From Candidatus Latescibacterota bacterium (lineage in GTDB: Bacteria; Latescibacterota; UBA2968; GCA-2709665), in the NCBI GenBank assembly GCA_965222075.1, contig OZ244937.1:2752001-2816000 (forward strand): a stretch of 64,000 bases of DNA, written 5' to 3'. The notes beneath the pieces were generated by a model. The model saw only the letters and a program-made list of their open reading frames with translations. It ran no database searches and was not told the DNA's origin. Shown here piece by piece: positions 2,517 to 20,600 of this stretch (position 1 is the stretch's first letter; each line of letters opens with the position of its first letter). Made by a program: the position numbers and the translations under genes.

Positions 2517-4904
2517 ATGATGCTGCGTAACTATCTGATTGTGGCGATTCGGAATCTGCTGAAGAATAGAGTCTTGTCCATGATCAACATTCTTGGGCTG
2601 GGAGCGAGCATGTCGATTTGCATGCTGATCATCTTGTTCGTGTCATACCAGCAGTCGTCGGACGCGTGGCACAAGAAGGCAGATCGTATCTACCGCATCA
2701 CCTGCGACTATAGTTCGCTTGCTGGTAGTATTCGCCCCTTCGCAACGACACCTGCGAGCCTTGCTCCGCTGCTGCAAGAGGCCTACCCGGAGGTGGAGGT
2801 GGCTACACGGGTACGCATCTTCCGCGGCTCGGCGGGCCCTCGCGGCGAGCAGATCGACGTGTCCGGCCTTTATGCCGAGCCGTCGTTTTTCGAGGTATTC
2901 GACTTCACGCTCGCGGAAGGGGATGCCGCCACCTCGCTTTCCGAGCCCAATTCCATCCTGCTTTCGCGGCACCAGGCGGTCGCATTCTTTGGCGATTCCA
3001 GTCCGCTGGGCAAGACAGTGACGATCGGACAAACGCCATACACGGTAAAGGGCGTCCTGGCCGATCAGGCAGGGCCCAGTTATCTGCGGTTTCAGGTTCT
3101 GGTGTCGTTCGCGACCCTGGCATCGTCCAACCGACGGGCCCCGTACTGGTACGAAGACATGAACGACACATACACCTTCCTGGTCCTGCGAGAGGGTAGC
3201 CGCCCCCCGGCTCTGGAAGCGCACCTGATGCAGATCATCCGTGACCACTATCCTCCCAGGATGAACTCACGGCTGGAGAGGGCGTATGTCCAATTGTTGA
3301 CCGACATCAGCCTGGGCGTCATGATGGTTAACCAGCTTAGCTGGATCGTTCCGGGCTCGGTTGTCTATTTTGTGAGTGTCCTGGCCATCCTGACACTGGC
3401 GGTGGCGTGCTACAATTACACCAACCTGACGGTGGCCAGGGCAATGGCACGGGCGCAAGAGGTGGCGATTCGGAAAGTGGTAGGTGCATATCGGGGACAG
3501 ATCGCCTGCCAGATCTTGATAGAGTCGATTCTAACGGCACTGCTGGGAATGGTCCTTGCCTCATTGCTGCTCTTATGGCTCATCCCCAGTTTCAATGCGT
3601 TGTTCTTTACATCGCTTTTTCCATCGGCCCGCATCAGGATCGGCGTTCTCGAACACGGGACGGTCTATCTCAAGCTCCTCGGCTTCAGCGCAGGGGTAGG
3701 ACTTCTCGCGGGCACCTACCCTGCACTTCGTCTTTCCCGATTCGTCCCAGCCCTGGTCTTGAAGGGAGGACGTTTCACGAAGGGTCGGGCCTGGTCATTC
3801 AAACAGGTGCTTGTGATGGGGCAGCTTGGATTGTCGCTATTCTTCGTCCTCTCGACCCTGTTCGTATACCAGCAGTTCCGCTACCTGGTGTCGTCCGACT
3901 ATGGATTCGATCACGAAAATATCGTGAACGTGAGGCTTCAGGGGGTGCGCTACGACGTGTTCCGGCAGGCGATGGAGCAGTCGCCTGCGGTGGAGCACAT
4001 TTCAGGCGCCTCGCAGCTCCTGATGCAGGGGGAGCAGGAGCCAGTCCTGGTGAAGGTCGGCGGGGGAAACCCTCAGACGATCAACCAGTTGAAGGTGGAC
4101 CGCAATTTTGTTACGAACCTGAAGCTCAAGTTGCTTGCAGGCCGCAATTTCGATCAGCCATCGGAGATCCACACCGGCGCGCTTCTGAATAGCACCGCTG
4201 CTCGGCGTCTGGGGCTTGGGGACGGGGAGCAGGCGATAGGCCGAATCCTGACCGTGGGGAAGAGCACTGAACTCACCGTCGTGGGGATTCTGGACGACTT
4301 CCAGACATACGGCATGGGCACGGACTTCGATCCGATCATCCTGCGCTGGGACCCGGCGGGCATAAATTGGGCGAACGTGCGAGTGTTACCAGGCCAGATG
4401 TCTCAGGCGGTTGCGGACCTCGAACGGATCTGGCCGAAGCTTGGAAGCCCATGGAAAGTGGAGCATGCTCCGTTCACGACGCAAATCCGTGCAGGAATGC
4501 TCGGCGGGTTCTATTCAGACGCATTGCGCATCATTGCTCTGATCGCCACTTTCGTGGTGCTCCTGGCCTTGCTCGGAGTCCTGGGAATGGCGATTCACAC
4601 GACGGAAACGCAGGTCAAAGAAGTCGCCATACGCAAGGTTCTGGGAGCGAGTCCCTGGCAGATCGCAGTGCTGCTATCAAAGGGCTTCTTGATAATGTTT
4701 GCCCTGGCGGCCCTGCTGTCGGCGCCCGCGGCATGGTTCGCAAACCACCTCTGGCTCAACCAGTTCCCCTTCCGGGTCACGATGAACCCGTGGCTGTTCG
4801 GCAGCGCTGTTGCCGCGATGATGGCGATTATTCTCGCGGTGGTTGGGTCGCAGACGCTTCGCGCGGCGACTTCGGACCCGGTAAAGGCGCTCAGGAACCA
4901 GTGA
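2517..4904 (+). CDS. ABC transporter permease, duplicated MacB-periplasmic/FtsX type
   Basis: MLRNYLIVAIRNLLKN start, two EVAIRKV(V/L)GA motifs, multiple TM segments, C-terminal DPVKALR. Confidence 0.9.
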   Translation: MMLRNYLIVAIRNLLKNRVLSMINILGLGASMSICMLIILFVSYQQSSDAWHKKADRIYRITCDYSSLAGSIRPFATTPASLAPLLQEAYPEVEVATRVRIFRGSAGPRGEQIDVSGLYAEPSFFEVFDFTLAEGDAATSLSEPNSILLSRHQAVAFFGDSSPLGKTVTIGQTPYTVKGVLADQAGPSYLRFQVLVSFATLASSNRRAPYWYEDMNDTYTFLVLREGSRPPALEAHLMQIIRDHYPPRMNSRLERAYVQLLTDISLGVMMVNQLSWIVPGSVVYFVSVLAILTLAVACYNYTNLTVARAMARAQEVAIRKVVGAYRGQIACQILIESILTALLGMVLASLLLLWLIPSFNALFFTSLFPSARIRIGVLEHGTVYLKLLGFSAGVGLLAGTYPALRLSRFVPALVLKGGRFTKGRAWSFKQVLVMGQLGLSLFFVLSTLFVYQQFRYLVSSDYGFDHENIVNVRLQGVRYDVFRQAMEQSPAVEHISGASQLLMQGEQEPVLVKVGGGNPQTINQLKVDRNFVTNLKLKLLAGRNFDQPSEIHTGALLNSTAARRLGLGDGEQAIGRILTVGKSTELTVVGILDDFQTYGMGTDFDPIILRWDPAGINWANVRVLPGQMSQAVADLERIWPKLGSPWKVEHAPFTTQIRAGMLGGFYSDALRIIALIATFVVLLALLGVLGMAIHTTETQVKEVAIRKVLGASPWQIAVLLSKGFLIMFALAALLSAPAAWFANHLWLNQFPFRVTMNPWLFGSAVAAMMAIILAVVGSQTLRAATSDPVKALRNQ

Positions 4905-5027
4905 ACTGCATAGCATCCTGTGAAATTCTCCAGTAACGAGCGTTTTCAGCGCATCATTGATCCTCCAGAAAAGCGAACGATCATGGCATGCTATTTCTGG
5001 GACAGAACACCAGGTCACCGGAGCATA

Positions 5028-5693
5028 ATGATGAAATTTACGCTTTTATTTTTGATCCTATATCTGGGTACAACACCTGTTTTTGCACAGGAAACGCAAG
5101 CGGATTCAACGCGGAGTGAACGGCCGACATTTTCGATGACGCCTACCTGAGTGGGCTGACCTGGGGAAGGCGCACCGCTTCGGGGAAGCGGCATTCATAC
5201 GAAATTTACACTTTCAGGGCGGTATGTAGATACGCCAATGGACCGCCCGCAGTGGCGGTTTACCGCCAATTACAGCCTCCATCAACGCTTGCAAGTTGGG
5301 GTTGAGGTGAATCCAAAAGCGAAAGAGGCAGGACCTCTTGTGACGCTGTTTCTGTTAACCGAGACCAGGACGCGTCCGGCGCTCTTTTTGGGCACGAGCT
5401 CAGATCGAATCGGTTCGCCGGCGGGCGAGCAGTCTTACTTCGCCACCATAAGCAAATATATACCCCGGTTGCGCACTTCTTTTTACGGCAGTTTGAATTA
5501 TTCGGAATGGGATGGGAAGTTCAATATTCCCTTTGGCGCGGGGGTTGAATTGGGTAAAGGCTTTTCACTTCGACCGATGTATGATGGCGACCGGGGGCAT
5601 GTGATGCTGAATTATTTCACCACGCACTACGGTGTCAGTTTGATGTATGTGTGGCTTGAAACCCCGGGTATTTCGTTTTCTCTCGGATTTTAA
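5028..5693 (+). CDS. Putative outer-membrane beta-barrel selenoprotein with UxxU motif (YjbH-like barrel)
   Basis: GGAG RBS and ATG 5028, signal peptide MMKFTLLFLILYLGTTPVFA. In-frame TGA at 5148-5150 and 5157-5159 (T-U-V-G-U-P); the frame stays open into ORF 5238..5693, which ends in the beta-signal-like GISFSLGF. Confidence 0.75.
5175..5191 (+). promoter_or_regulatory. Candidate bacterial SECIS hairpin
   Basis: Stem CCGCTT/AAGCGG with loop CGGGG. The loop starts about 21 nt after the second UGA and about 30 nt after the first. Confidence 0.5.
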
Positions 5694-5694
5694 T
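5667..5694 (+). repeat. 28-bp direct repeat, copy 1 (3' end of the barrel gene)
   Basis: GGTATTTCGTTTTCTCTCGGATTTTAAT, identical to 7453-7480. Confidence 0.95.
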
Positions 5695-5772
5695 TTGACA
5701 TTGTCAGATTTGGAAGGAGACCCCTGTCGAGAACAAAAATCCAATCCACCTTAAATTCGCCTCAAATTGGTC

Positions 5773-5803
5773 TTGACTTTGGGGTCCACTTCAAAGGTAG
5801 TTT
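5773..5803 (+). promoter_or_regulatory. Candidate MerR-family (ZntR/CadR-like) promoter-operator
   Basis: TTGACT, 19-nt spacer, TAGTTT, with the imperfect dyad CTTTGGGGT-CC-ACTTCAAAG (7/9) spanning the spacer. Confidence 0.45.
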
Positions 5804-5840
5804 ATCTTTGTATGTTCACTGCTGAGGGAGGATCGATTAA

Positions 5841-7208
5841 ATGCACGTCACCAGAAGGCAGTTTCTGAAGTCGGCGGCCGCCGTCACCGTGGGATTCCAA
5901 GGGCTGCAGCGCCACGTGGTCTGGGGGGAGGCCCCCAGGGAGGGGATCGCCGCGGGCTACGGCCCCATGCGACCGGACCCGGGCGGGATCGTCGACCTGC
6001 CCGCGGGCTTCACCTATCGGGTGATCTCCCGCACCGGCGTCGAGATGGACGATGGCCTCCGGGTGCCGGGGCTGCCCGACGCCATGGCCGCCTTTCCCGG
6101 AGCGGAGGGACGGACCCTGCTGGTCTGCAACCACGAGCTCACGGCGGGGGCCCGCAAGGTCGGCGCCTTCGGCGATGAGAACGAGCGTCTCGGCAAGCTG
6201 CCGCGGGAGCGGTTCTACGACTGGGGCCGTAGCGACCCGCCCCAGGGAGGGACGACGACCTTCGTGCTCGGCCCCGCCGGTGAGCTGGAGAAACATTACC
6301 TCAGCCTCGCCGGCACCGTGCGCAACTGCGCCGGCGGCCTCACCCCCTGGGGAAGCTGGATCACCTGCGAGGAGACGACCCAGCGCGCCGACGACAACCA
6401 CGAACAGGACCACGGGTACAACTTCGAGGTCCCGGTGGGCCCGGCCACGGGGCCGGTGGAGCCAGTGGCCCTGAAGGCGATGGGCCGCTTCAACCACGAG
6501 GCCGTCGCCGTCCATCCGGCGACGGGCATCGTCTATCAGACCGAGGACGCCGGCGACGGTCTCATCTACCGCTACCTGCCCGACGAGCCCGGACGTCTCG
6601 CGGCCGGTGGCCGGCTGCAGGCGCTCATGGCCCTCGACCGGCCGAGCCTGAACACGGACAACCACAAGTCGCAGACCGTCGCTCCCGGGGACCGCCTGGC
6701 CACGGCCTGGGTCGACATGGAGGACGTGGAGTCCCCGAACGATGACCTGCGCGCCCAGGGGTTCGACAAGGGCGCCGCCCGCTTCGCCCGCGGCGAGGGC
6801 ATGTGGTACGGCCGGGGGGCCGTCTACTTCGCATGCACCAGCGGCGGCAAGGAAAAGAAGGGGCAGGTGTGGCGCTACGAGCCGAGCCCCTATGAGGGGA
6901 CGCCCGACGAGACGGCCTCGCCCGGGACCCTGGAGCTGTTCATCGAGCCCAACGACGGCAACCTGGTGGAGAACTGCGACAACCTGACGGTGGCGCCCTG
7001 GGGCGACCTCGTGCTCTGCGAGGACGGCGGTGGGGACAACCACTTGGTGGGGGTCACGCCGGAGGGGCGGATCTACAAGCTCGGCCGCAACGCCTTCAAC
7101 GAGTCCGAGTTCGCCGGCGCCACGTTCTCGCCCGACGGCCGCACGCTTTACGCCAACATCCAGTCGCCCGGGATCACCCTGGCCATCACCGGGCCCTGGA
7201 CGGGCTGA
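5841..7208 (+). CDS. phoX: PhoX-family (DUF839) alkaline phosphatase, Tat-exported
   Basis: TRRQFLK Tat motif; LVCNHE, NCAGGLTPWGSWITCEE, MGRFNHEA, FARGEG, DNL...LCEDG and SEFAGATFSPDG motifs. Confidence 0.85.
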   Translation: MHVTRRQFLKSAAAVTVGFQGLQRHVVWGEAPREGIAAGYGPMRPDPGGIVDLPAGFTYRVISRTGVEMDDGLRVPGLPDAMAAFPGAEGRTLLVCNHELTAGARKVGAFGDENERLGKLPRERFYDWGRSDPPQGGTTTFVLGPAGELEKHYLSLAGTVRNCAGGLTPWGSWITCEETTQRADDNHEQDHGYNFEVPVGPATGPVEPVALKAMGRFNHEAVAVHPATGIVYQTEDAGDGLIYRYLPDEPGRLAAGGRLQALMALDRPSLNTDNHKSQTVAPGDRLATAWVDMEDVESPNDDLRAQGFDKGAARFARGEGMWYGRGAVYFACTSGGKEKKGQVWRYEPSPYEGTPDETASPGTLELFIEPNDGNLVENCDNLTVAPWGDLVLCEDGGGDNHLVGVTPEGRIYKLGRNAFNESEFAGATFSPDGRTLYANIQSPGITLAITGPWTG

Positions 7209-7452
7209 GCCGAGGCCTCAGTCGAGTCCCTGGCGCGGCTCGGCGCAGGTCACGGCTGATCGCGCTTGATCAGGTAGCGCAAACCGGCAGTTTGCAGCAC
7301 CCTCGCCGGGCTGTTGCGTTTTACGTACTAAGCGAGCCTTAACCCTTTAAAATCAAGCAAATGAAAGCCATGGCGGCCTGCAGAAATTGGGGCATGGTCA
7401 ACATCCAAATGCGCCATGTGAAGGTTGGGACCGTTCAATGATTTGCATCAAT

Positions 7453-7480
7453 GGTATTTCGTTTTCTCTCGGATTTTAAT
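7453..7480 (+). repeat. 28-bp direct repeat, copy 2
   Basis: Identical to 5667-5694 and followed directly by GTGGAGGGTCAC-ATG of the next gene. Confidence 0.95.
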
Positions 7481-7492
7481 GTGGAGGGTCAC

Positions 7493-8176
7493 ATGCGTTA
7501 TTGGACATTTTTATTCCTGATTGTTCTGGCAAGTCCGGCTGCGCTGACAGCTGAAACTCAGATTCCCGATAGGGCGCTTTGCAGTGTCTGTGCATTAAAG
7601 GGCGGCGAGACAGAGTTGGAAAAGGTCAAGGCCCACTCGGAATATGAGGGCAAGGCATACTACTTTTGTTCTGAAAACTGCAAAATGGAATTTGACTCAG
7701 ACCCCACGGCTTTTTTACCACCGGTATTTCCACGACCTGCACCAGCCTGCGTTGTTGAAACGCTGGAGGGCGGAGACAGGGCGTTGGGGGATTTTAAGGG
7801 CAAAGTTGTGCTCGTAGATTTCTGGGCAACCTGGTGCAAACCCTGTCTTGAAACAATGCCCCGGTTGCAAAAACTCTACAACGTTTATTCCGACAGGGGA
7901 TTGGACGTTTTGGGTGTGTCTATAGATGAAGACAAAGACCGGATTAAAAAGATCAAAAAGATGGTGGACAAAATGAATATTTCTTATCCCATCTTTGTAG
8001 ACGCGAAGCAGACGCCCGCCTGGCATCAGTTCAAAGTGAAAGCGATTCCTGCGATGTATCTTCTCAACAGAGAAAGCCAGATCGTAGCGCAGTGGACGGG
8101 AAAGATAGATTACGAGGAAGTGGAGAAGGAAGTTTTGAGACAGTTGAAAAAAAAGCTCGAAGTTGAAGGGCCATAA
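7493..8176 (+). CDS. Exported YHS-domain / TlpA-family thiol-disulfide oxidoreductase fusion
   Basis: Signal peptide; CSVC...YEGKAYYFCSENCKMEFDSDP (YHS/TRASH); DFKGKVVLVDFWATWCKPC...P and AIP cis-Pro loop (TlpA/ResA). Confidence 0.85.
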   Translation: MRYWTFLFLIVLASPAALTAETQIPDRALCSVCALKGGETELEKVKAHSEYEGKAYYFCSENCKMEFDSDPTAFLPPVFPRPAPACVVETLEGGDRALGDFKGKVVLVDFWATWCKPCLETMPRLQKLYNVYSDRGLDVLGVSIDEDKDRIKKIKKMVDKMNISYPIFVDAKQTPAWHQFKVKAIPAMYLLNRESQIVAQWTGKIDYEEVEKEVLRQLKKKLEVEGP

Positions 8177-8297
8177 GCGAATTTTGTTGCGAAGCATACT
8201 CAGACCCGTTGTGATCTGAGCTGGCTCGTACCCGAGTTTGGTTCCTACCCAACGTCAGCGTGGAAATCCACAAACCATTTGAGCTCATGGAATAAAA

Positions 8298-8867
8298 ATG
8301 GAACTACTATCCTTTATTTTGTTGCTGGTTATTCTGTTGGGGCCTTTCTGGCTGATTTTCCATGTTCGCAAGGAAAGTCGTCGGTGTCGTTACTGTTTGG
8401 TTGCGATAAAGAAGGTGCAGGATTTGCCCGAACGGGGGAAGATTAATTCCCTCATAAAAAACGAAAAGATGCCGGGGACAGCAGCCCATTATGAGCTGTG
8501 TTCGAAGTGCAAAAGACTGTACGATTGGAGATGGTTTGACGATGAACGAGCACACAGACGAGACTGGGATATGCATGATAGGCAGTGCGCCTGTGGGTTC
8601 AATTTGAAACCTCCGTGGAATGTAGCTCCGGAGATTTCTAAAGAGGTATTGCGCAAGATTCCCCTTGAAACGCTCGAGGCCTTATATCAAAAGTATGGAA
8701 AATCAACGTTGATTGAGAAACTCTACGACAATCTTGATGACGACAATATTTTTTTCTTATGCTCAAAATGCAGAAGAATTTATATGTGGCAGCCTCTAAA
8801 CGGATATCAAGTGCTACAGTGCATTTCACAAGATCATTCAAAATATGACCCGGACCCGTTTTTATGA
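8298..8867 (+). CDS. Membrane-anchored hypothetical protein with duplicated Cys-rich motifs
   Basis: N-terminal TM helix; CRYC, LCSKCKRLYDW, CACG, LCSKCRRIYMW; AT-rich DNA. Confidence 0.65.
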   Translation: MELLSFILLLVILLGPFWLIFHVRKESRRCRYCLVAIKKVQDLPERGKINSLIKNEKMPGTAAHYELCSKCKRLYDWRWFDDERAHRRDWDMHDRQCACGFNLKPPWNVAPEISKEVLRKIPLETLEALYQKYGKSTLIEKLYDNLDDDNIFFLCSKCRRIYMWQPLNGYQVLQCISQDHSKYDPDPFL

Positions 8868-9146: not shown

Positions 9147-9524
9147 ATGCAGAACACGTGCCCTGTCTGCCAGTCTGAGTTGCAGGATTTCACTAAGAGA
9201 CCGGAAGGCCACGACAAGAATCAATACTCCTGCCCCCGCTGTGGTGATTTTCTCTTCTCTCGGACACTGGTCCAAACACTCCTGTATAAGCCCCCCTCCG
9301 AACTTGCAAAAATCAGCCATGCCCTTCGGTTGATGCAAGCGAATAATCAAGTGGCTGAGATGTCTACGAACACTGTTGAGGAAGTGCTGAAGCGTCCATT
9401 GCCATCTCCAAGTGAGCAAGCCGATCTTCTCGTTCGCTGGATCGCCGAGAATGTCGATGGTCCTAAATGCCCTAAATATGGCCTTGTGGCAGCGTCGTCC
9501 CAAGGACGTGATCCATCATTCTGA
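9147..9524 (+). pseudogene. Zn-ribbon protein, probably truncated at about 9460 by an IS3 remnant
   Basis: GGAGG upstream; CPVC and CPRCG motifs; after ...WIAENVDG the sequence becomes IS3 integrase DNA in another frame. Confidence 0.55.
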
Positions 9525-9842
9525 CCGGAGATCGCAGTATACTTCTCTGGCCTTCGGCCTGCGCTGCAAGAAGGCCGGTGTCCGTCCCTCCACAGGATCC
9601 GTCGGAGACTGCTTTGACAACGCCATGTGCGCGAGTTTCTTCGCCACAGTAGAATGCGAACTGCTCGACCACCGCTGCTTCCGCACTTACCAGGAAGCGC
9701 AACAGGCACTCTTCGCGTATATTGAGGGGTGGTATAATCCACATCGCAGACATTCAGCTTTGGGATACGACTCACCCACAACCTACGAGGTAAGACACCA
9801 AACACGGGCTTGACACCCAAGCCTAAAACCGGGGTAGCTCCA
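9460..9842 (+). mobile_element. IS3-family remnant (C-terminal integrase core and right end)
   Basis: IHHSDRRSQYTS...GDCFDNAMCASFFATVECE...YIEGWYNPHRRHSALGYDSP; ends with AAAACCGGGGTAGCTCCA. Confidence 0.85.
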
Positions 9843-9889: not shown

Positions 9890-11959
9890 ATGAAAGAGTT
9901 ATACAGTTGGGTGCGGTGGTTTCGAGAATTGGCGGAAAAAATTTCGGAAGGTGACAAAGCATATCTGATTGAAAAAGCCAGAGAAGTGGAGTGGGGAAAG
10001 ACCCCCACCTTGCTTCGATATGGCGATGAGGCCATCAATCCGTTTTCTTTTTTTTATTTTTTGGCTTCAAAAAACACCAGTAAGCAACTCAAACCCGTGT
10101 TCCACAGCGTTAGTAGTGTATTTGAAATTGAACCGCTGCTATATATGGACGTAGATGAACGCTTTGTCTTTCCCGTTCCCAATTTCAATATACTTTTCTA
10201 TGATGAAACAAACTCCAATATGGATCTGCTCTGGCGTTTGTTCAGGCAGGCGGCAGTAAAGGACGAGCCAAAGATAGACCCGGATGAATTCAAGAAAGTT
10301 CTTGATATTAAGGGAGTTGGGATTGCAAAATTGACGCAAACCTTGTTTTTGACAAACCCCGAATACTTCCTGCCCATGGATAATGTAACCAAGGATTTGT
10401 GGAAAGTTCTGGACTTGCCGACGCTGTCAGAAATAGAAAATGATGGCTATGAGACATATCGATCGTTTCTTGAGAAGTTAAAGGAAGCATTTCCAGAGTG
10501 CCAGCCGTATGAAATCAATATGTTCTTATATCTGCAAAACTCCGGAAAAATAAAGGTGAACGATAATTTCTATCAAATTAGCACTCAGGTATATGGAGAC
10601 AAGAAGGGTGATCATTGGGACGACTTCAAGTACAACAATTGGGTTTATACCGGCGGACCGGGGGGTAAATCATGGGGGGAACCGGGAAAGTATCCTTTGG
10701 AAGAACCTGCACCGGGAGATATTATCCTGGTCAGAACAGGAATAACAAAAGGAAAGGCTATTGGCATCGTTCAGAAAAACGATTATGTCGAGTCGGGGAT
10801 AAACAAAGACAGCAGGATTCATGTCTTGTGGATAAACAAGGAGCAAACAGACTTATCCAGGAAAACGGAACAGGTTGGTTTTGCGAAGACTAAATCGGAC
10901 TCGAAGACATATTTGGCATTTGAGAATACGGATGCCTATAAGCCTTCCTTCGAGTTGATTGAAAAAATGAAAGGAAATTCGATTGGGAACGAACCAGAAA
11001 CCGATACCATGAAATATCTACAACCTTTGAATCAGATACTTAGATCCCGCGATCCGATCCAGGATACGGGCGAGGATCTCTTTCTGCGCGAGGGCGAAAT
11101 CGAGCGCCTGATCGCTCTGCTTCGGCGCAAGAAGAATCTGGTCCTCCAGGGGCCGCCGGGGACGGGAAAAACCTATTTGGCGCAGGGTTTGGCTCGGTTG
11201 GTGGTGGGAGAAAAGTCGAAAAACCGCATCGAGACCGTTCAGTTCCACCAGTCTTATGGTTACGAGGATTTCGTCCAGGGATATCGGCCCACCGGGGATG
11301 GCGGATTCGAGCTGAAGGATGGTCCTTTTCTGCGCTTCTGCGAACGCGCCCAGCCGAGCCCGGATTGCCCCTTCGTGCTGGTGATCGACGAGATCAACCG
11401 CGGCAACCTGAGCCGGATCTTCGGTGAGCTGTTGATGCTGATCGAGGCCGACAAGCGCAAGCCTGAGTGGGCAGTGCAGATGGCCTATTCGGACGAAGAC
11501 ACGACCCCGTTCCACATTCCGCCGAATCTGTACCTGATCGGAACCATGAACACCGCGGACCGTTCTCTGGCTCTGGTCGATTACGCTCTGCGCCGCCGAT
11601 TCGTTTTTCACACAGTCGAGCCCGCCTTCGGAAATGAGCGATTCGCCCGCCACCTGGAAGAGCGCGGCGTGCCGGAAGAGTTTCAGGAGCGCATCCGAAA
11701 CCGCCTGGGCGCTTTGAACGAGACCATTCGGGAAGATCCGAGGCTCGGCGAGGGGTTCCAGATCGGGCACAGCTATTTCTGCGATCCACCCGGGGAGCTG
11801 CACGAAGAGGAAGATTCAAGCGGGTGGGAGGAGTGGTACGAGGACGTGATCCGCTACGAGATCGAGCCCCTTCTCGCCGAGTACTGGTTCGACGATTCCG
11901 AAAAAGCCAAGACAGAAGTCAAGAAACTGCTTGCTACTCCTGCCGATAACGCTCCATGA
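9890..11959 (+). CDS. mcrB: McrB-family AAA+ GTPase (type IV restriction)
   Basis: GPPGTGKT, VQFHQSYGYEDFV, VIDEINRGN, GTMNTADRS, DYALRRRF, IGHSYF. Confidence 0.92.
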   Translation: MKELYSWVRWFRELAEKISEGDKAYLIEKAREVEWGKTPTLLRYGDEAINPFSFFYFLASKNTSKQLKPVFHSVSSVFEIEPLLYMDVDERFVFPVPNFNILFYDETNSNMDLLWRLFRQAAVKDEPKIDPDEFKKVLDIKGVGIAKLTQTLFLTNPEYFLPMDNVTKDLWKVLDLPTLSEIENDGYETYRSFLEKLKEAFPECQPYEINMFLYLQNSGKIKVNDNFYQISTQVYGDKKGDHWDDFKYNNWVYTGGPGGKSWGEPGKYPLEEPAPGDIILVRTGITKGKAIGIVQKNDYVESGINKDSRIHVLWINKEQTDLSRKTEQVGFAKTKSDSKTYLAFENTDAYKPSFELIEKMKGNSIGNEPETDTMKYLQPLNQILRSRDPIQDTGEDLFLREGEIERLIALLRRKKNLVLQGPPGTGKTYLAQGLARLVVGEKSKNRIETVQFHQSYGYEDFVQGYRPTGDGGFELKDGPFLRFCERAQPSPDCPFVLVIDEINRGNLSRIFGELLMLIEADKRKPEWAVQMAYSDEDTTPFHIPPNLYLIGTMNTADRSLALVDYALRRRFVFHTVEPAFGNERFARHLEERGVPEEFQERIRNRLGALNETIREDPRLGEGFQIGHSYFCDPPGELHEEEDSSGWEEWYEDVIRYEIEPLLAEYWFDDSEKAKTEVKKLLATPADNAP

Positions 11960-13035
11960 AGATTCCGCCCATGAATCTCTACTACCTGCTCTGCTATGCC
12001 TGGGACCGGCTGGAATCCCGAAACTATGTGGATGTGCGGGCCGTCGGTGAAGAGCTTCCTCAGGACCTCTTCGCACGCCTGCTCCGGGCGGGCTTCGAGC
12101 AACTTCTGAAACGCGGCCTTGATCGCGGTTACCGGGAGCACACCGAGGATACGCGCCGGCCGCGGGGCAAAATCGACTTCGCATCAACCGCCCGGCGCGC
12201 GTTACGGATCCGAGGTCAAGTGCATGTGCGCTACGAGAATCTGAGCCGCGACGTGCTCCACAATCGGATCATCAAGACGACGATGCGTCGCCTGGGGACC
12301 GACCCGGACCTGGATCGCGGCCTGAGCGGAGACCTCGAGCGCCTGGCGCGGCGCATTCCCGAAGTCGCCGAAGTGGAGTTGCGCGACGATCTGTTCGATC
12401 GCGTGCAGATTCACCGCAACAACGCCGGCTACGGCTTTCTGCTCAATCTTTGTCGGCTGGTGAGTCGCAACCTTATCCCGGAACACCGCTCCGGGAGATT
12501 CCGCTTTCGAGACTTCACTGGAAACGATATGGAGATGGGCCGGCTCTTCGAAGACTTCGTGCGCAATTTCCTGCGCATCGAGCGACGGGCTCTTGGAGTG
12601 CTCGGGAGGCACAAGCAGATCGAGTGGGACGCTTCCCTGGAGGGCAACGCAATCCGCCTCCCCGTCATGGAGGCGGATATCTTCGTTCCGAACGTCCGCG
12701 GGCGCAGCGCCATCCTCGAGACCAAGTGCGTATCCGTGCGTTTCTCTTCGAGGCAAGGTGGACCCGCTTCACTGAAGAGCGACCATCTCTATCAGCTCTT
12801 CGCCTACCTGGCAAATCACGCGCGCTGCTATCCGAACGAGCCGCCAGTCATCGGCGTGCTGCTCTATGCGACCGACGGCGAGAGTTTCGGTTATCGTTAC
12901 CGCATCCACGATCATCCACTGTGGGTGCGGTCCCTCGACCTCGCACAACCCTGGCAAGAGATCCGCGAGGAATTGCTCGGATTGGCAGCCGAGTTGGAGC
13001 AGCAGACATCCGTGACCGCGTCGGCTGTGACTTGA
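11956..13035 (+). CDS. mcrC: McrC-family nuclease subunit
   Basis: IP.MNLYYLLCYAW start, LFEDFVRNF, ADI...ILETK, HLYQLFAYL; ATGA overlap with mcrB. Confidence 0.9.
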   Translation: MKIPPMNLYYLLCYAWDRLESRNYVDVRAVGEELPQDLFARLLRAGFEQLLKRGLDRGYREHTEDTRRPRGKIDFASTARRALRIRGQVHVRYENLSRDVLHNRIIKTTMRRLGTDPDLDRGLSGDLERLARRIPEVAEVELRDDLFDRVQIHRNNAGYGFLLNLCRLVSRNLIPEHRSGRFRFRDFTGNDMEMGRLFEDFVRNFLRIERRALGVLGRHKQIEWDASLEGNAIRLPVMEADIFVPNVRGRSAILETKCVSVRFSSRQGGPASLKSDHLYQLFAYLANHARCYPNEPPVIGVLLYATDGESFGYRYRIHDHPLWVRSLDLAQPWQEIREELLGLAAELEQQTSVTASAVT

Positions 13036-13325
13036 AGCGAGGCCGCTCTGTCCGGTCTACCGAGTGCTCCACCAGCGCTGTGATGCAGACCGCGATTTAC
13101 GCACATCCAAAACCGTAAAACGAAGTCCTCGATTTTGGCCGAATTCCACGTTTTGTCCTATAAAACCAGCCATTATACACTGAATTTTCGGTCAGGATGC
13201 TGCTTTTGAGTAATCACGGTACTCCTCGATGACGTGATCCAGAGCGATGATGAGATATAGCACAGTGCCCTCCTGATCATCTTATCCAGTCCATCTATAT
13301 CCATCTCCACAAACCGTGCAATCTG

Positions 13326-16067
13326 TCAGTACCTATCTCCACCTTCAAACAGGTCCTTCTCCGTTAGATGAGAAAGCTGCCCGGAAACAGCGCACACGAA
13401 ATCCGACAAAATCTTCAGTATCTCCGGCGATAGCTTCCCCTGTTGGCCCTGCTCTGTCTGAAGGAATTCATCTACGGGAATGAGGTGATCGGCCATGAAG
13501 GTTTTCCTTGGATTCCTGCTTTTGCTCTGCAGACAGAGAACTTCGACCTTCTCTTTTGGTTTTCTGAGACAGTCTCTTTGCGCAACACACAGACCCGCAG
13601 AGCCCTGCCAGAGCAATTCCCCTTTCCGGATCTTCGTTCGACCGAGCACTTCCTTCAGTTGCGCCGGCTCAAACGCCTCATAGGTCTCTTGAAAGATCCG
13701 AATCGCATTTCCTCTTCTGATCAGAGTCTTCCACTTGGCCAGGTATTTCTGCCAGAACTGATCATCAGCATTGGGCAATATCCTGGTATGCGCAAGAAGC
13801 TTACGAATCTTGGGCAGAAGCTCCTCAGTTGAGTCCGTACGCCACAGCCAGCCAAAGCGGGCAATGGCCGATACCTGTATCAGGGTCAGTTGTGCATTCC
13901 TGGGGGAATCCGTAATTTCCTGAGTACCCAGCATCCACACAGCCATCGCGGCGGCGAAATCCACTGAGGCCAAAGCTTTGACAAACCCTTGCGGATCTTT
14001 CGACTCCTGATATAACTTGTCGATATACCCGTGATACGGCTTCTGAGAGTCGGATTCGGAATCTATGAGCTTGAAGAACGCGAGGTGCCACACCTTATAC
14101 GTCAGATTAAGGTACTCCGCTTCAGGCAACCAGTTCTCTTTTACAGCAGAGGCCATCAAAATGGCGACAATTGCCAGATCCTTCGAGATCAGTTCTGGAG
14201 ACCGTTTCCCAAGATATCCCTTGTCCGAGATCTTGGCTACTACGGACTCCAGGAGCCCGATCATTTTCTGGCGTTCCCTCTCGTCTATTTCCTCCGTTTT
14301 TATAGAAGGCCCCACGTAGGAGGACACAAGCCTTGGGGCCTCGATTTTGTCCTCATCGGTGTCCTCATCCACATCTTCTGGTTCCGGCATTTCCCCTTCG
14401 GATGAGGGCCTTTCGGAAATACGCCCAAAGCCGAAATACCGAAGCAAAAGCCCCCGCAGTCCATCTATCCTCCCCTGAGGGTAATAACCAGAGACGGGAG
14501 AGGGGTCAGATAGGAGACCAAAATCATCTGAGAACACATCCGCTCGGGTGAACCGAACCGTTGTCGATTCTTCACCCTCTCCGGCGCGCCACCCTCCGGG
14601 GAAGGAACCATCCCGAGGCGTCTGATAATCCAGGTGGTCCTGGAGGAGTCTGAGTATATCATTGAATGCGGGAAGCCCCCAGGTGCCTTCCCGTACGCTC
14701 TGGTGGATGGTATTCACAAGCGCACGCTCCTTGGAGGTTGCGCTGAGTTCGAATTCGTGGTCAATCCAGATGAGATTTGAATTTACCTTCTCGCCTGAGC
14801 ATACACCTTTGAGTTGTAGAGATAGGTTGCGCTGTGCGGCTGAAAACTCCGATGGCGGCGTCACGATAAGTTCTTCGTCACCACTCAACTGGAATTTAAC
14901 AGCCCGACCATTGACCAGGCATTCCTCGATCTGAACATCCCCCTGTTTTGTGAAGCCGACCCGAATCTCCTCGTCGTTCGATCTCGCAGCCAGCACCTTC
15001 AACACATAGGCTGGTCCATCCGACGGAGTTTCTTCCGGCTCAGGGTGCTCAAGGCGAGGCCGTTGGTTTGAGATCTTCAATTCAGCCAGAAAGTGCTTCC
15101 TGAATTCACTCCTGGACAGTTCCTGCACTGCAACCAACTCCGCATTTCCTCCAGCTCCTGAAATCGTCCAGGCAGCCCGGGAGCAGTTTGCGCTGCCCAG
15201 GACAGCGGTTACACGGTTTCCCCTTTCGATGCCGTAGAACTTTGCATGGAGAAACCTCAGGTTTCCATCGGGACCGACATATTTGACGGTTCTGAGAGCT
15301 ATACCTTCCGGCAAGTTCGAAACAACCTCTTCAGAGAGATTGGTCTTCCCCTCCTGCAGGAGCGCAACTACCTCACCGGCAGAGAAACGTTCCTTCATTT
15401 CCTCCAGGGCCTTCCCTTTTTCATCAAAATAGGGCGCGCAAACCCAGAGTCTGTCTACCCCCCCATTCGCGGTGACCGCGGTCAGTTGATCAATCAGGCT
15501 ATCACCCATCCCCGCTTTTCCCACAAGCATACCAGGCTGCCCCAGGTAACTAACCCACCGCTTTCGTTCCGACCCGAATGCATCCTCCACATCGTGCCGG
15601 ATAGCCTCCGCAATATGCACATGGTCGAGAATTCCAGTCAGGTAATCCCTGAAATAAGCAAATGCCGGTGCCTCATCCTGTGTTTCTTCGTTGAGCCCAA
15701 ACTCCGCCCAGACCTCGCCGTTTTCCCGCCATCCTCCAAACCCAGCATTTCCGCTACCGACAAAAAGTGTGGCCTGTTCTCTTGCGGAAAGCAGAACCGC
15801 TTTGGGATGAAACCGAAAGGGATGGGGCAACCCGATCGGAACCAACCGATACCGCCTCCCCAGGGCGCTGAGATAGCAGCGCTGGCGCTCATACATGTCA
15901 AACGCACAGCTCCCCTCTGCGAATACCGTGAGTGCAGGGCTCCCAACCCGCTGCAGGACGGGCAAAAGGATATGCTCCAGAAACACGCCGTCGATATTAT
16001 GTGTAAGCACAATGACGTTCTCAAGGTCCCTGTGACCCCTGATTTTCTGTATTAGATCCGCCCTCAT
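13326..16067 (-). CDS. Phospholipase D-superfamily (HKD, nuclease-type) protein with long C-terminal extension
   Basis: FHPKAVLL...FVGSGN and FLHAKFYGIE...LGSANCS, two HxK half-sites; CAPYFD. Confidence 0.8.
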   Translation of the reverse strand: MRADLIQKIRGHRDLENVIVLTHNIDGVFLEHILLPVLQRVGSPALTVFAEGSCAFDMYERQRCYLSALGRRYRLVPIGLPHPFRFHPKAVLLSAREQATLFVGSGNAGFGGWRENGEVWAEFGLNEETQDEAPAFAYFRDYLTGILDHVHIAEAIRHDVEDAFGSERKRWVSYLGQPGMLVGKAGMGDSLIDQLTAVTANGGVDRLWVCAPYFDEKGKALEEMKERFSAGEVVALLQEGKTNLSEEVVSNLPEGIALRTVKYVGPDGNLRFLHAKFYGIERGNRVTAVLGSANCSRAAWTISGAGGNAELVAVQELSRSEFRKHFLAELKISNQRPRLEHPEPEETPSDGPAYVLKVLAARSNDEEIRVGFTKQGDVQIEECLVNGRAVKFQLSGDEELIVTPPSEFSAAQRNLSLQLKGVCSGEKVNSNLIWIDHEFELSATSKERALVNTIHQSVREGTWGLPAFNDILRLLQDHLDYQTPRDGSFPGGWRAGEGEESTTVRFTRADVFSDDFGLLSDPSPVSGYYPQGRIDGLRGLLLRYFGFGRISERPSSEGEMPEPEDVDEDTDEDKIEAPRLVSSYVGPSIKTEEIDERERQKMIGLLESVVAKISDKGYLGKRSPELISKDLAIVAILMASAVKENWLPEAEYLNLTYKVWHLAFFKLIDSESDSQKPYHGYIDKLYQESKDPQGFVKALASVDFAAAMAVWMLGTQEITDSPRNAQLTLIQVSAIARFGWLWRTDSTEELLPKIRKLLAHTRILPNADDQFWQKYLAKWKTLIRRGNAIRIFQETYEAFEPAQLKEVLGRTKIRKGELLWQGSAGLCVAQRDCLRKPKEKVEVLCLQSKSRNPRKTFMADHLIPVDEFLQTEQGQQGKLSPEILKILSDFVCAVSGQLSHLTEKDLFEGGDRY

Positions 16068-17605
16068 ACCGCAGTCTCAAGCTGTTGAAGCATTTCCTGC
16101 CCGACGTCCGTTATGCCGTATCCACTGTTCTCAGCGCTTTCGACCAGCCCAAGGTCCTCCAGCATATTGACCACACTGCCAAGTCGCTCACCGCTGTACC
16201 CCGCTCTCGTCTGCGTTCCCGTTGAACGGAACACATCCCCGTCCCAGTAGAACCGAAGTGAACATTTTTGACCCTGACCCATCTTACGCCAGGTTGTATT
16301 CAGGTGCGGCGCGATCGTGCAATCTCCCACAATCTTCGCCAGCACATCCACCATCCGTTCCCCCGATGCCCGATCCAGGACCTCAAAGGCCATATCCAGC
16401 GGACTGTTCGGGTACTCTTTTATCAGCCCCTTGCGCCTCCAGGCCGAAATATGACGCCAGCAAGAGACAAGCAAAGACAATCCCAGGATCACCCTGGAAG
16501 CCGATATCAGATTCCGGGCTGCTGCTCTCGTCGGCGCTCCATCCAGAAACGCCTCAAATGGAACCGAGGCTGAGAAATCGTCCCATGTCAGCTCCCAAGG
16601 AGGCGACTGTAAATCCACGTATTTTGTCAATTCATCAGGGAAAGCATCTACTTCTGCCCATTCCCGGATGACCTCATGCAGCCTACCTGCCGTCCTGGAT
16701 GTCAGCTTATCACAGAAGGCAGAAAAGAGGATTTCGAGGCTGAAATGCCCCCGGCGGCGGAATTCGTAATTGACCCAGGCCTTCTGCACCTCTTCAGGAT
16801 AGACTGATTCGTCCTCCAGACACCGTTTGTATTCCTGAACGATCAACGCCCCTGCATCTACACCAGAGTCCTTCACATTCCTCAGAATCCACTGCAAGGT
16901 GCTGCGAAAGCGGCTGTAGTACTCTGCTTGTGGGGAATAGGGTGTAGTAAAATGGCTCGTGAGCAGTTCCCTTTCCTCCCGTGCCGTATCTGAAAGCAAC
17001 CCCTGTAAAGAAAAATGATCCTGCCACTCCAGAACCTGTTCTACTGAGATCTGGCTGCCCTCAAAAAGATGTGGAACAAGTGGACAGCGCTCAAGCTGCT
17101 GTTTCTTAAGTTCGTAAAACGCCTTTCCTCGCGGCGTGACATGGATGGGATCTCCGCCCTGAAGAATGCCAAATCCCTGGCAAGGCATAATATAGACCCC
17201 AACGATAGATCCCCCGCCTTCGGGCTCCAGATCAACTGATCCAGATTCCTGTAACTCCTGGATGAGGCTACGGTGCGTGTCGCTCCCCAGCGCGCCGTAT
17301 ATCGAGGCAGGGGGTTCATCCGGCCTCGTAAGCTCCGAAGCAGCCACAATAATCGTTTCCAGACGGCTCAGGAAGAGACGGAGTTCTTGAGGCTCATATT
17401 CGCCTTCCCAACGGCCATTTCCCATCTTCTGTTTGTAAAACTCCGCAAGAGCCCAGGGGAGCAAGGAAAGATACCTGGCCCTCAGAGAGATCGTGGTAAT
17501 GCCCGCTACCCACGCCTTCTCAATGGCCTGGTCAATACGCCGGATTTCAAGGATATCCAGCCCCTGTATTTTCTTCCGTTCACCGGAGTTCCAAAAGATC
17601 TTCAT
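16064..17605 (-). CDS. Hypothetical protein, DUF6361-like N-terminus, partner of the PLD protein
   Basis: GLDILEIR...GITTISLRARYLSLLPW motif; C-terminal R..SVVNMLEDLGLV...ITDVG winged-helix-like end; 4-nt overlap with the PLD gene. Confidence 0.65.
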   Translation of the reverse strand: MKIFWNSGERKKIQGLDILEIRRIDQAIEKAWVAGITTISLRARYLSLLPWALAEFYKQKMGNGRWEGEYEPQELRLFLSRLETIIVAASELTRPDEPPASIYGALGSDTHRSLIQELQESGSVDLEPEGGGSIVGVYIMPCQGFGILQGGDPIHVTPRGKAFYELKKQQLERCPLVPHLFEGSQISVEQVLEWQDHFSLQGLLSDTAREERELLTSHFTTPYSPQAEYYSRFRSTLQWILRNVKDSGVDAGALIVQEYKRCLEDESVYPEEVQKAWVNYEFRRRGHFSLEILFSAFCDKLTSRTAGRLHEVIREWAEVDAFPDELTKYVDLQSPPWELTWDDFSASVPFEAFLDGAPTRAAARNLISASRVILGLSLLVSCWRHISAWRRKGLIKEYPNSPLDMAFEVLDRASGERMVDVLAKIVGDCTIAPHLNTTWRKMGQGQKCSLRFYWDGDVFRSTGTQTRAGYSGERLGSVVNMLEDLGLVESAENSGYGITDVGQEMLQQLETAV

Positions 17606-17623
17606 GATCAAGCCAAACGGATT

Positions 17624-20600
17624 CAGTAGTAAAAAATTGTCGAATCGGACAATTCTCGGCCAAAAACCGAGGCTTTTCTCCTGATTCGTGGCTCCGCCAC
17701 CGCGATTTCTAAAGCCTTACACCGCCCGCATTTATCCCCGTCCACAAGACGGACATTCTGCGAGATTTTCGTAAACATACAAGAACTAACATCTATGAAT
17801 CGTCTTTGCAATGATCCTTTATATATGGTCTTTTCATTACACTATTCCTCAGTTTTTGAGTTGCCGCTTTCTTGTCAGCCGGGGTAAAAGAGATCGCCCT
17901 TAATTGCCTTCGGCGGTTTGCGCATTTCGGCTGAGGCGGAGGGCATCTCGTCGGCTCGGAAGCAGTCGCTTGCGACGACGGCTTCGAGTAGCCGCGCCTG
18001 TTCGGGATAGGACTTCACCGTCGCCTCCAGAACCCAGAGCAAATCGAGTAGTTCCGTGGTGAACTGGCTGGTCCAGCGCACGGGGCGGATGTCGTCGAGG
18101 GGCGAGGATTTCCTGCCGGCCCCTTTTTTCATGCGGTACTTGAGCCAGGACTGCACGACCTTGAGGCCTGAAACATCGAACTCGTAGACCTCAGGTGCGA
18201 CGGGTGCAAACTCGCCCTCGCCGACGCGGAGTGTCTGGGGCGCGTCGCTGTAGTAGAACGCTTTGGGGTAGCTGTCGGCATCGCCGAGGACGGCCTTGAT
18301 ACACTTGGCCGCACCGGGCGGAACACGACCGCGCGTCTGTCCCGTGGGGACGAAACGCTCGCCGTAGGTATGCAGCCACAGCAACCGCGCACCCGCCTTA
18401 CGGACCTGCTCGAACAGCGTCGCGTCCTTTGTGAGGGGCACGCGCAGTTGGCGTGTTTCCAGCTCAGTCTCAAACCGCGCAGTGAAGTCCGGTTGCGCCA
18501 ACACGCCGTAGATGTAGGCGAGCAAATCTTCGGGCGTGACGTCGCGCTGGTAGGCCGCGCCAAGGACTTCGAGCAGGCCAGGGGTAATGTTCGCTTGCGA
18601 GATGTCGGCGGTGCGGTAGAGGGGAATCGTGTCTTTTGCACCGCGGCCTGAAAAATAGTGAAGATCGGGGATCGTCGCACAAGTTGTAAGCGCTGGCCCG
18701 ATACCCAGAGCTTGAGAGAACAAGCTTGTCAGATACACCTGCTGTTCGCCGTGGGCGCGCCAGAGGTCGGGGCGCGGACGGGACATTAAGCGACCGTCCA
18801 CGATGATGTAGTGGCGGTCAAAAGATCGATAAGCATATCGTTGCACTTCTGGTATGGGAGTGTTTTTTGGCAGTTTGGAAATCGGTGTCGAATCGTTCTT
18901 CTTGTCAGTCAAGACAACCCGATATGTGCCATGAACCTCACGGTCACCCGTTCCACGAAATGCCTCTGATCTATCCCCGGCATTTAGCAGACTGCGCCAA
19001 CGATGCTCCAGTGTTTCCGTATCCGGTGCAATCGGCCACGTTCGTTTCAACTGAACACCCGAGTGCTGCCACGGCATCAGATCAGTCAGTAACGGCCAGA
19101 CGAAGTAATCTCCTTCGCCCGCCGGGCGAAACGGAGCTTGCCATTTATCCGGGCAATCCTGCCATTCCACTTCCGCAAAGCCACCGACAGCGTCGAGCAC
19201 GGAGAGCTTCTTTTCCCGTGTCCCCTCAACCCGGGCATGGTGGACTTGTGCGGGCTTGTCTCTCGCCGCCTTCTTCGAGCGGAAAGCCACGGCAATGGCG
19301 ACAGGTGTCTGGATCGCGAAGACGTTGTCGCTTTTGCGCGTGCCGCGTCCCTCGCCGCCGAGGTCGAGGATCCAGATTTCGTCGCAGACGCGGCGCATGT
19401 GTTCACGCATCCCGGCGAAAGCGTCGCCGTCGAGGTAGCTCGACGCACTGATGAAACTGACGATGCCGGGGCCTTTGGCTGTGTCGTGCTCGAAGACTTT
19501 CCACAGCGCCCAGCGCCAGAAATAGACGTAGAGGTTGTAAAGGTTCTTGACGTGGACACCGTGCCCGGCGGCGGTGGCGGGATTGAGGAAATCCTTCAGA
19601 ATGGCGAGTTGCTGTCTTCTTTCAAGTCTGGCCTTGGGAGTCTTGAGTTCCCTGTACCTGCCCTTTCTATTCTTGACCATATTGCTGGACAAAGGGTCAC
19701 CGAATCGAACCCATCCACCGTACTGAGAAAGATTGGCCTCGTTTTCCGTATCCACCGCATCGTGCCGGTCGTATGGGGGATTGCCCAGACAGACGATGAC
19801 CGGGACCGCGCTCTTGACTTTAAGCGCCCTGGCGTGCTGCTCGGCGATAGGTCGCAGAATGAACGGCAAGTGCGGAGGTTCGGCGTGGGGGCTTTCGAGG
19901 GTGTCGGTCAGGTAGATATGCGTACCATCAGCCGGCAGTATTGCGCCGTTATCGCGCAGGGCACGGCTGACGCGCAGTTCGCTCACCGCGTAAGGGCCGA
20001 CCAGCAGCTCGAAGCCGTACATATTTTGAGCCAGCGCGGTGGCCTGGCCGGCGACCGCTCCCGGCCCCTGCTCTGCTCTGACGCGGCCAAGGGCGTGTTC
20101 GATAACGCCGAGCAGATAGGTTCCGGTTCCCACGGCGGGATCGAGCGTGACGACGCCGGGGTCGGCGAAACCGAGCGGCTTCCCGAGACGGCGGACGAGC
20201 AAATCGTCGATCAGGCGCACCTGGGCACGGACGACCTCGACCGGGGTGTAGTAGGCCCCGGCGTCCTTGCGCAGCCCGGGATCGTAGACGGTAAGAAAGT
20301 CTTCGTAGAAATAGAGCCAGGGATCTTCGGGACCGGTGAGCGTGGTGGACGGCACGACATCGATCACGCGCAGCAGCAAGTCGAGGGAAGCGGCTATCTC
20401 GGCATACGCATTTGCATCCGTCAGAACTTGCAGCGCGCGCGACAGCAAGCTGTGCTGTGCGGCGAGGGCCTTTTGCGCGCTTTCAAGGGTGAGGGGATCG
20501 GCCCCCTCGCTGCGGCCCAGCAGCAGCGCGAAGGCCACGGTCTGAGCGTACGCGTCGGCGAACTGCTCGTCCGAGGCATCCGGGAAGAGCAGTTGCCGCC

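Follow-up and report, generated by a model that had tools for sequence, protein, structure and literature searches.

The stretch of DNA considered here, called the window in what follows, comprises 64,000 nucleotides (nt) of a Candidatus Latescibacterota genome (contig OZ244937.1, positions 2,752,001 to 2,816,000 of the forward strand), and positions are counted from its first base. Central to this analysis are two genes on its plus strand, the barrel gene at 5028..5693 and the partner gene at 7493..8176, which stand on either side of an insertion that carries an alkaline phosphatase gene. The barrel gene is predicted to encode an outer-membrane beta-barrel with two selenocysteines (Sec, U) in a U-x-x-U arrangement in its N-terminal tail, and the partner gene a protein that joins a YHS domain to a TlpA-like thioredoxin domain. 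Comparison with related loci strongly supports an ancestral and conserved pair, and the two proteins may together constitute a metal relay of the cell envelope.

Organisation of the locus

The barrel gene has 221 codons and a stop and reads as a signal peptide (about residues 1-21), a tail (22-59) and a 12-strand beta-barrel (60-220), with Phe at its end. Its last eight codons, the stop and one further nucleotide make up the first copy of a direct repeat (5667..5694, plus strand), within which the frame finishes ...GGA TTT TAA, the stop TAA being 5691-5693. At the 3' side of the second copy (7453..7480, plus strand) the sequence runs T, then 12 nt, the spacer 7481..7492 (plus strand) with the GGAGG ribosome-binding site of the partner gene, and then the partner ATG at 7493. 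A repeat search returned the two copies as 5667-5697 and 7453-7483, 31 nt at 97% identity of which the initial 28 nt are exact, and simple arithmetic gives a chance expectation of about 3e-8 for an exact 28-mer recurring within 64 kb.

Between the copies lies an inserted segment of 1758 nt (5695..7452, plus strand), consisting of a left arm of low guanine-plus-cytosine (GC) content (5695-5840), phoX (5841..7208, plus strand) and a right arm (7209-7452). The product of phoX is an alkaline phosphatase matching PhoX at 5.9e-81 and carrying a twin-arginine signal, for which the Pfam model TAT_signal scored 20.8 bits, under its cut-off of 22.7. The GC content of phoX is about 70% (0.69-0.73 over 5851-7200), against 0.44-0.56 in both genes that flank the insert. 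A first-pass annotation of this DNA had pointed to the similar moderate GC of the barrel and partner genes, and had claimed that collapsing the repeat would set the barrel stop 13 nt before the partner ATG with GGAGG between them; the sequence bears out both statements. Its expectation that relatives lacking phoX would have the two genes side by side could be followed in the 80 loci (L numbers) found by a single scan of a genome collection, for which a few aligned barrel homologues served as the query. In four Latescibacterota loci without phoX (L002, L003, L005 and L008), whose barrels are 87-93% identical to that of the window, the sequence matches the left copy of the window as far as the 28-mer and the right copy from there on, and the predicted junction is present in all four. 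In these relatives the barrel stop is followed by 11-12 nt with GGAGG and then by the partner ATG (in L002, the stop is at 6664-6666 and the ATG at 6678), and in L003, L005 and L008 the spacer known from the window directly adjoins the barrel stop. The two-gene module is thus split by a phoX insertion in this genome, and phoX is the cargo of that insertion, outside the module.

In the closest relative, L001 (96-97% identical), the left junction matches that of the window over about 110 nt, to about 5803; past this point the two sequences differ, and the L001 contig breaks off. The stretch of the left arm that both have is 5695-5803 in the window and 6667-6785 in L001. The presence of this junction in L001 means that the insertion is no artefact of the assembly of the window, and the site may have received different cargo in different populations. 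An assembly chimera was considered as the origin of the insert and is unlikely, given the same left junction in a separate record and an exact 28-nt duplication that leaves both flanking genes intact. The shared left arm includes a terminator-like hairpin at 5777-5796. No integrase, transposase or recombinase was found within the insert, no second copy of its left arm occurs in the 64-kb window, and a scan of 4850-8350 for promoters and terminators gave sites not in excess of those in shuffled sequence.

Selenocysteine codons of the barrel gene

The frame of the barrel gene contains two TGA codons, codon 41 (5148..5150, plus strand) and codon 44 (5157..5159, plus strand), both of which are read here as selenocysteine. 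The related loci were translated with TGA shown as X, and since L026 is without the 5' part of the barrel gene, 79 of them are assessable. The window and 79 of 79 loci all have both TGAs, and the motif that runs across them, P-T-X-x-G/A-X-P-G-E-G-(A/S/G)-(P/S)-L-R-G-(S/G)-G, is invariant. In every one of these loci the reading frame stays open upstream of the TGAs and encodes a conserved protein sequence, with an N-terminus that resembles a signal peptide. Replacement of Sec by Cys was not seen in any of the 79 loci of this Sec clade; Cys occurs only in relatives of about 25-29% identity, considered below.

Just 3' of the two codons lies a candidate bacterial selenocysteine insertion sequence (SECIS), a hairpin at 5175..5191 (plus strand) with a 7-bp stem and a GGG loop. 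It begins 24 nt past the first TGA and 15 nt past the second; the usual distance from the UGA to the loop of a SECIS is 16-37 nt. In a DNA alignment of 32 diverse members the loop reads G-K-G across the family, and the hairpin was also recovered by RNAalifold. Within this alignment 98.7% of the hairpin cells are paired, a value reached by none of 500 shuffles, while slid registers gave 31-69%. The pair formed by columns 42 and 48 is C-G in 25 sequences and U-A in 7, with no sequence in which it is broken. Both columns are synonymous third positions, Leu CTY pairing with Gly GGR, so that the constraint acts on the RNA and not on the protein. Conserved TGAs, a covarying hairpin and homologues with Cys-x-x-Cys, which are the customary sequence criteria for such a protein, together lead to the prediction that the barrel gene encodes a U-x-x-U selenoprotein, both UGAs of which would be decoded with the help of this one hairpin. 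In SelL, too, a single SECIS reportedly serves both Sec residues, and the barrel gene would offer a natural case of two UGAs nine bases apart that share one bacterial SECIS.

It is very improbable that the TGAs are instead true stops, with the annotated open reading frame (ORF) of 151 aa at 5238-5693 being the whole gene and the upstream piece a separate ORF or non-coding. Such a view would agree with public gene calls, which begin 3' of the TGAs in nearly all of the best 120 of 696 homologues (E 1e-3); the lengths of these best 120 are 121-166 aa, for the most part 151-166 aa, and they span 68-75% of the protein that read-through would give. A barrel without a signal peptide could not, however, be exported, and the conservation of the upstream frame with an invariant motif over both TGAs, the covariation in the hairpin and the Cys homologues that read straight through all speak against termination. 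Two full-length database proteins, P0014 and P0052, have Trp at both sites of the dyad. The Trp residues of P0052 were considered as a case against Sec and rejected, P0052 being the same protein as that of L048, whose DNA has TGA twice; some gene callers evidently read through under another code. Reassignment of TGA throughout the genome was likewise rejected, since other genes of the window stop at TGA, among them phoX (7206-7208) and a MacB-like gene (4902-4904), and since members of the family occur in many phyla. The additional X residues in the L051 translation were considered as further TGAs and rejected, being scattered N bases of the record (5869-6060). Rfam gave no match in the window, the curated selenoprotein models of NCBIfam were not matched by the barrel protein, and neither selA, selB, selC nor selD lies in the 64-kb window, where a tRNA scan found no genes.

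Fold and topology of the barrel

An AlphaFold2 model built from an alignment of 59 sequences shows 12 strands over residues 60-220, with a mean predicted local distance difference test (pLDDT) score of 81 and a predicted template modelling (TM) score of 0.74, and places the Sec pair in the tail ahead of strand 1. In a Foldseek comparison with the PDB the top matches were all outer-membrane barrels (FapF, designed transmembrane barrels, OEP21, NanC and KdgM), including FapF 5o68 at E 6e-5 and KdgM 4fqe at TM 0.50 (query) and 0.63 (target) with a root-mean-square deviation of 4.3; sequence identity to the structural matches is 9-14%. The C-terminal residue is Phe, as is usual for outer-membrane barrels. 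The protein is thus modelled as a small 12-strand outer-membrane barrel with an N-terminal tail of about 40 residues, which agrees with the U-x-x-U barrel described in the first-pass annotation. An even number of strands puts both termini in the periplasm, which leads to the expectation that the Sec pair lies in the periplasm or at the mouth of the pore. Alignments further reveal many invariant Asp, Glu and His residues in the loops of the barrel, which suggests a path for cations.

By sequence, the barrel protein belongs to no described family that could be recognised: Pfam (E up to 0.01) and NCBIfam gave no family, and with them no peroxiredoxin or thioredoxin match, and a profile of the barrel retrieved no PDB sequence at E up to 10.

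The partner protein

The partner gene (227 codons and a stop, plus strand) begins with a predicted signal peptide (about codons 1-20), after which come a YHS/TRASH domain, a linker rich in Pro and, at codons 82-212, a thioredoxin domain of the TlpA/ResA type, and its translation contains the motifs CSVC, FCSENC and WCKPC, the last of them the active-site motif at 7832..7846 (plus strand; Cys115 and Cys118). The YHS and TlpA-like assignments, made earlier by eye, are upheld by Pfam, NCBIfam and structural matches alike. Pfam YHS scored 40.1 bits against a cut-off of 30.3 and AhpC-TSA 7.5e-21, with Redoxin and Thioredoxin_8 matched as well, and the closest solved structures are ResA 4nmu (3.5e-21) and TlpA 1jfu (1e-12). 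The curated NCBIfam models were matched at 101.3 of the 170 bits set for ResA and at 65.5 of the 230 bits set for TlpA; going by these scores, the partner is a relative of both families and an equivalog of neither. Its N-terminus reads by eye as a signal peptide, with a basic residue, a hydrophobic run and A-L-T-A before E-T, and the mature protein appears to be soluble and not anchored in the membrane.

Six Cys residues are invariant in 51 of 51 partners (that of the window and 50 others), arranged as C-x2-C, 25 residues, C-x3-C, plus W-C-x-P-C; the YHS Cys residues of the window protein are Cys30, Cys33, Cys59 and Cys63. The spacer of 25 residues compares with 19-22 in the TRASH consensus. 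All 51 match Pfam YHS together with AhpC-TSA, Redoxin or Thioredoxin_8, and the names that databases give to homologues of the partner are generic ('redoxin domain-containing protein', 'peroxiredoxin/YHS domain-containing protein').

Pairing of the two genes across lineages

A W-C-x-P-C pattern is found on the same strand about 340-580 nt past the end of the barrel gene in 50 of the 80 loci, and in all 50 it belongs to a YHS-TlpA gene. Five loci stop within 260 nt of the barrel end, which leaves 75 assessable for the partner. To the 50 intact pairs may be added L035 (5998-6620), a decayed module that retains both TGAs and has an extra TAG near codon 76, and in which a single deletion has brought barrel codon ~160 up against what is left of the partner, its last ~25 codons. 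With this remnant counted, 51 of 75 assessable loci have the partner directly downstream of the barrel. According to record titles the pair occurs in at least eight lineages, namely Latescibacterota, Gemmatimonadota, Planctomycetota, Calditrichia, Thermoanaerobaculia/Acidobacteriota/Holophagales, Eisenbacteria, Multivoradales and Deltaproteobacteria. The genes around it are wholly different among L002, L012, L024, L029 and L076, and no third conserved gene was found in these five neighbourhoods.

Adjacency in so many loci, together with the junction kept in the relatives without phoX, accords with the ancestral operon that the first-pass annotation had proposed. Its expectation that the barrel would co-occur with YHS-TlpA holds in part: the 51 loci agree with it, and in the other 24 of the 75 assessable loci no gene coding for WCxPC lies within about 6 kb on either strand. 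Twenty of these 24 are labelled Poribacteria, and for two loci, L030 and L060, the absence was confirmed by an ORF listing. The barrel can evidently exist without an adjacent partner. This observation would suit a different account, in which common descent alone has kept the two genes side by side and their products have separate targets, the partner serving, for instance, general cytochrome or cuproenzyme maturation. Partner-like proteins also outnumber barrels, with 2286 hits at 1e-10 against 696 at 1e-3, the thresholds of the two counts being different. We nevertheless regard mere co-inheritance as quite improbable, given that the tight same-strand adjacency persists in at least eight lineages while other neighbours change, that L035 lost both genes by one deletion, and that fusions of YHS domains to barrels exist.

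Cysteine homologues and YHS fusions

Distant relatives were sought by a profile search of 1.84 billion representatives, and 19 were fetched. Twelve of them have Cys-x-x-Cys at the aligned dyad, typically as P-T-C-A-G-C-A-G-E. The other seven comprise P0131 (Cys...Trp), P0214 (Trp twice), P0132, which starts after the motif, and four barrels without the motif (P0148, P0162, P0251 and P0254). The dyad of P0131 reads C-V-G-W, which could be Cys...Sec with the Sec written as Trp by the gene caller, or a true Trp. The barrels of this Cys clade are 25-29% identical to the window protein.

Among ten distant homologues scanned, five have one or two YHS domains fused N-terminal to the Cys-x-x-Cys barrel, and 43 of 63 relatives of one of them, P0145, cover at least 92% of its length and carry PF04945. 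Where they are named, the fusion barrels are a 'YHS domain-containing protein' or hypothetical proteins of Fimbriimonadaceae, and no thioredoxin domain is fused to barrels of the Cys clade. Fusions of YHS to barrel homologues were among the associations sought after the first reading of this DNA, and their presence, judged from domain matches, ties the YHS domain to the dyad and is the strongest independent link between the two proteins. A group of Fimbriimonadales proteins of about 560 aa (P0316-P0322) combines YHS with PF13115 and matches the YHS part of the fusion barrels; one of them is named 'FixH family protein', which may be a weak hint toward the supply of copper to an oxidase.

A proposed metal relay and its alternatives

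It is proposed that the barrel and its partner constitute a two-gene metal-relay module of the envelope, a reading to which we assign a probability of about 50% and which is built on analogy with better-known systems. The reductase domain of the partner would hold both selenols in the tail of the barrel, and perhaps also the cysteines of the YHS domain, in a reduced and metal-competent state in the oxidising periplasm. The YHS domain would exchange a thiophilic metal with the Sec-x-x-Sec site, and the barrel would move this metal across the outer membrane in the direction of either uptake or efflux. In such a scheme the tail could act as a periplasmic site of binding or gating, comparable to the His/Met-rich tail of PcoB. 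Localisation, the redox relay, the identity of the metal and transport itself are all inferred by analogy with TlpA-ScoI/CoxB and with PcoB, and it is on grounds of analogy, too, that copper would be the most likely metal. In the available portion of PMC6669012, TlpA is described as keeping the cysteines of CoxB and ScoI reduced ahead of copper binding, and the accessible part of PMC4626032 presents a YHS domain as a probable copper sensor. A more specific version, which we put forward tentatively and consider rather less probable than the relay as such, is that this is the first selenium-dependent outer-membrane transporter, a porin gated by an obligate di-Sec metal site with one SECIS and a YHS-reductase as its servant.

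Several observations weigh against such a relay, in addition to the loci in which the barrel has no adjacent partner. The part of the tail that bears the dyad (residues 30-59) is modelled with less confidence than the barrel, at a pLDDT of 67-70, and its periplasmic exposure is predicted from a general rule of topology. The structural matches are moderate, with TM scores normalised to the query of 0.50 at most. The first-pass annotation had looked to MerR or P-type ATPase genes beside the barrel homologues, and the five neighbourhoods scanned gave it no support, for genes of the MerR, P-type ATPase, multicopper oxidase and CcdA/DsbD kinds are all absent from them; nothing nearby names the metal or the source of electrons. 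Further, the redox potentials of diselenides are very low and their reduction is difficult, according to PMC2397514. A reductant of the TlpA type may thus be too weak on its own, without metal binding or a selenenylsulfide intermediate to drive the reaction.

The same proteins could also sustain a redox relay without any transport of metal. The Sec-x-x-Sec tail would then be a catalytic selenol/diselenide or selenenylsulfide centre at the outer membrane that the TlpA-like domain recycles, for example a peroxide or disulfide reductase or a redox-gated pore. The YHS domain would either be a zinc ribbon with a structural role or regulate the reductase as a sensor of redox state or of metal. Most prokaryotic selenoproteins catalogued in the accessible text of PMC9312934 and PMC13188914 are indeed redox proteins with UxxC, CxxU or UxxU; the thioredoxin domain of the partner scores as ResA-, TlpA- and peroxiredoxin-like, and a dyad that is never Cys in the 79 loci of the clade fits a need for selenium chemistry. 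However, what the Cys clade fuses to its barrels is one or two copies of YHS and not a thioredoxin domain, which would be unexpected if YHS were a mere regulator. The dyad, moreover, sits in a poorly structured tail and in no fold of the thioredoxin type, and the invariant acidic and His residues of the barrel loops suggest passage of a cation. On balance, a relay confined to redox chemistry appears unlikely.

Trafficking of chalcogens, by which the dyad would capture selenide, polysulfide or elemental selenium as Se-Se-X adducts that are to go through the barrel and that the partner would release, seems more doubtful still. A Sec pair readily gives mixed chalcogen adducts, all organisms with the Sec form need to acquire selenium, and the partner is a reductase. 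The Cys clade with its fused YHS points to metal and not to selenium, however, and no sel, rhodanese or YedE/YeeE-type gene lies beside the pair in the five loci or in the window.

Should the barrel prove to be a selenium-dependent transporter of the kind described above, selenium would take part in moving a trace metal, probably copper, across the envelope in several marine and symbiont phyla that are uncultured. The pair and the fusions suggest a route to an outer-membrane metal site by way of a reductase and a chaperone, and provide a testable hypothesis of function for the poorly understood YHS domains.

Relation to known systems

The proposed system joins features of known kinds, namely UxxU selenoproteins, preparation of metal sites by proteins of the TlpA type and PcoB-like barrels with ligand-bearing tails, and it is not categorically new. 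Like the TlpA that acts with ScoI/CoxB in Bradyrhizobium, the partner is probably an extracytoplasmic CxxC reductase of the TlpA/ResA kind, and its proposed client would likewise be a vicinal chalcogen pair that needs reduction to bind metal (PMC6669012, as far as its available text goes). Unlike TlpA, it scores under the curated cut-offs and bears an N-terminal YHS/TRASH domain; and while the clients of TlpA are Sco and CoxB, the presumed client here is a Sec pair on an outer-membrane barrel.

The likeness to PcoB/CopB is one of architecture only. PcoB is reported to be a 12-strand barrel with short loops and both termini in the periplasm (PMC9210255, available part) and to have a disordered N-terminal tail that is rich in metal ligands and required for function (PMC9210255 and PMC12509749, accessible parts), and the window barrel is modelled with 12 strands and a tail of about 40 residues. 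The two have no relation in sequence, as judged from the absence of Pfam matches and of hits to PDB sequences at E up to 10, and PcoB is absent from the structural matches listed for the window barrel. The tail ligands of PcoB are His and Met and its neighbour is the multicopper oxidase PcoA, whereas the barrel of the window has two selenocysteines in its tail and a YHS-TlpA protein as its neighbour. KdgM/NanC and FapF, the best structural matches, are without a Sec or Cys dyad and without a reductase partner. The Fimbriimonadaceae-type barrels of the Cys clade are nearer, being homologous barrels with a dyad at the same place and an association with YHS; they differ in having Cys for Sec and YHS fused rather than separate, and in having no fused thioredoxin domain.

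The UxxU motif is shared with SelL/Prx-like proteins, with the NF041115 'metal-binding protein' (a putative mercuric reductase) and with FmdB (PMC13188914 and PMC9312934, in the parts available). In these known proteins the motif lies in a thioredoxin/peroxiredoxin fold or in a small metal-binding domain; here it is in the tail of a membrane barrel. For SelL, the accessible text of PMC2397514 reports a diselenide and an occurrence in marine bacteria. The available sections of the reviews on prokaryotic selenoproteins give UxxU only in Prx-like proteins, NF041115 and, in PMC13188914, FmdB, and mention one outer-membrane barrel, the MtrB/PioB-like GSU2204 family (PMC9312934, PMC13188914). A literature search found no description or curated model of the present barrel family, the supplementary tables of the sources being places where more candidates may be listed; the text of BSepDB contains no mention that matches it, and 'YHS' and 'TlpA' appeared together only in a table of PMC13188914, of which a part was available. 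The barrel proteins thus apparently form an uncatalogued selenoprotein family, and one that public annotation truncates almost everywhere. It is widespread, extending over Latescibacterota, Gemmatimonadota, Poribacteria, Acidobacteriota-related lineages, Eisenbacteria and Calditrichia, and would place selenocysteine in the tail of an outer-membrane protein, away from the usual folds of the thioredoxin type. Search methods that rely on Sec/Cys pairs among close hits, such as those in the accessible part of PMC12013277, may have missed the family, since no close Cys form was seen in the Sec clade.

Surroundings of the pair in the window

Upstream of the barrel, a gene for a MacB/FtsX-type permease (2517-4904) lies between a leucine-rich-repeat (LRR) gene and the barrel gene in the window. 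In L001 the LRR-repeat ORF (3067-5913) ends 88 nt before the barrel (6001) with no permease between, so that the window differs from its closest relative 5' of the barrel as well. Downstream, 1.2 kb past the partner, a transposase fragment at 9412-9813 (Pfam rve, rve_2 and rve_3, integrase core) is a sign of mobile-element activity. It is followed by a cluster of defence genes at 9890-21246, which includes a McrB-like AAA_5 ATPase, McrC, a PLD-like protein of 913 aa and a Type ISP restriction-modification enzyme, and the GC content is patchy, at 0.40-0.64, over 9900-13000. Right after the partner gene lies an ORF of 189 aa (8298-8867) that has several C-x-x-C pairs and a weak match to Mut7-C, and that differs from the gene following the partner in L002.

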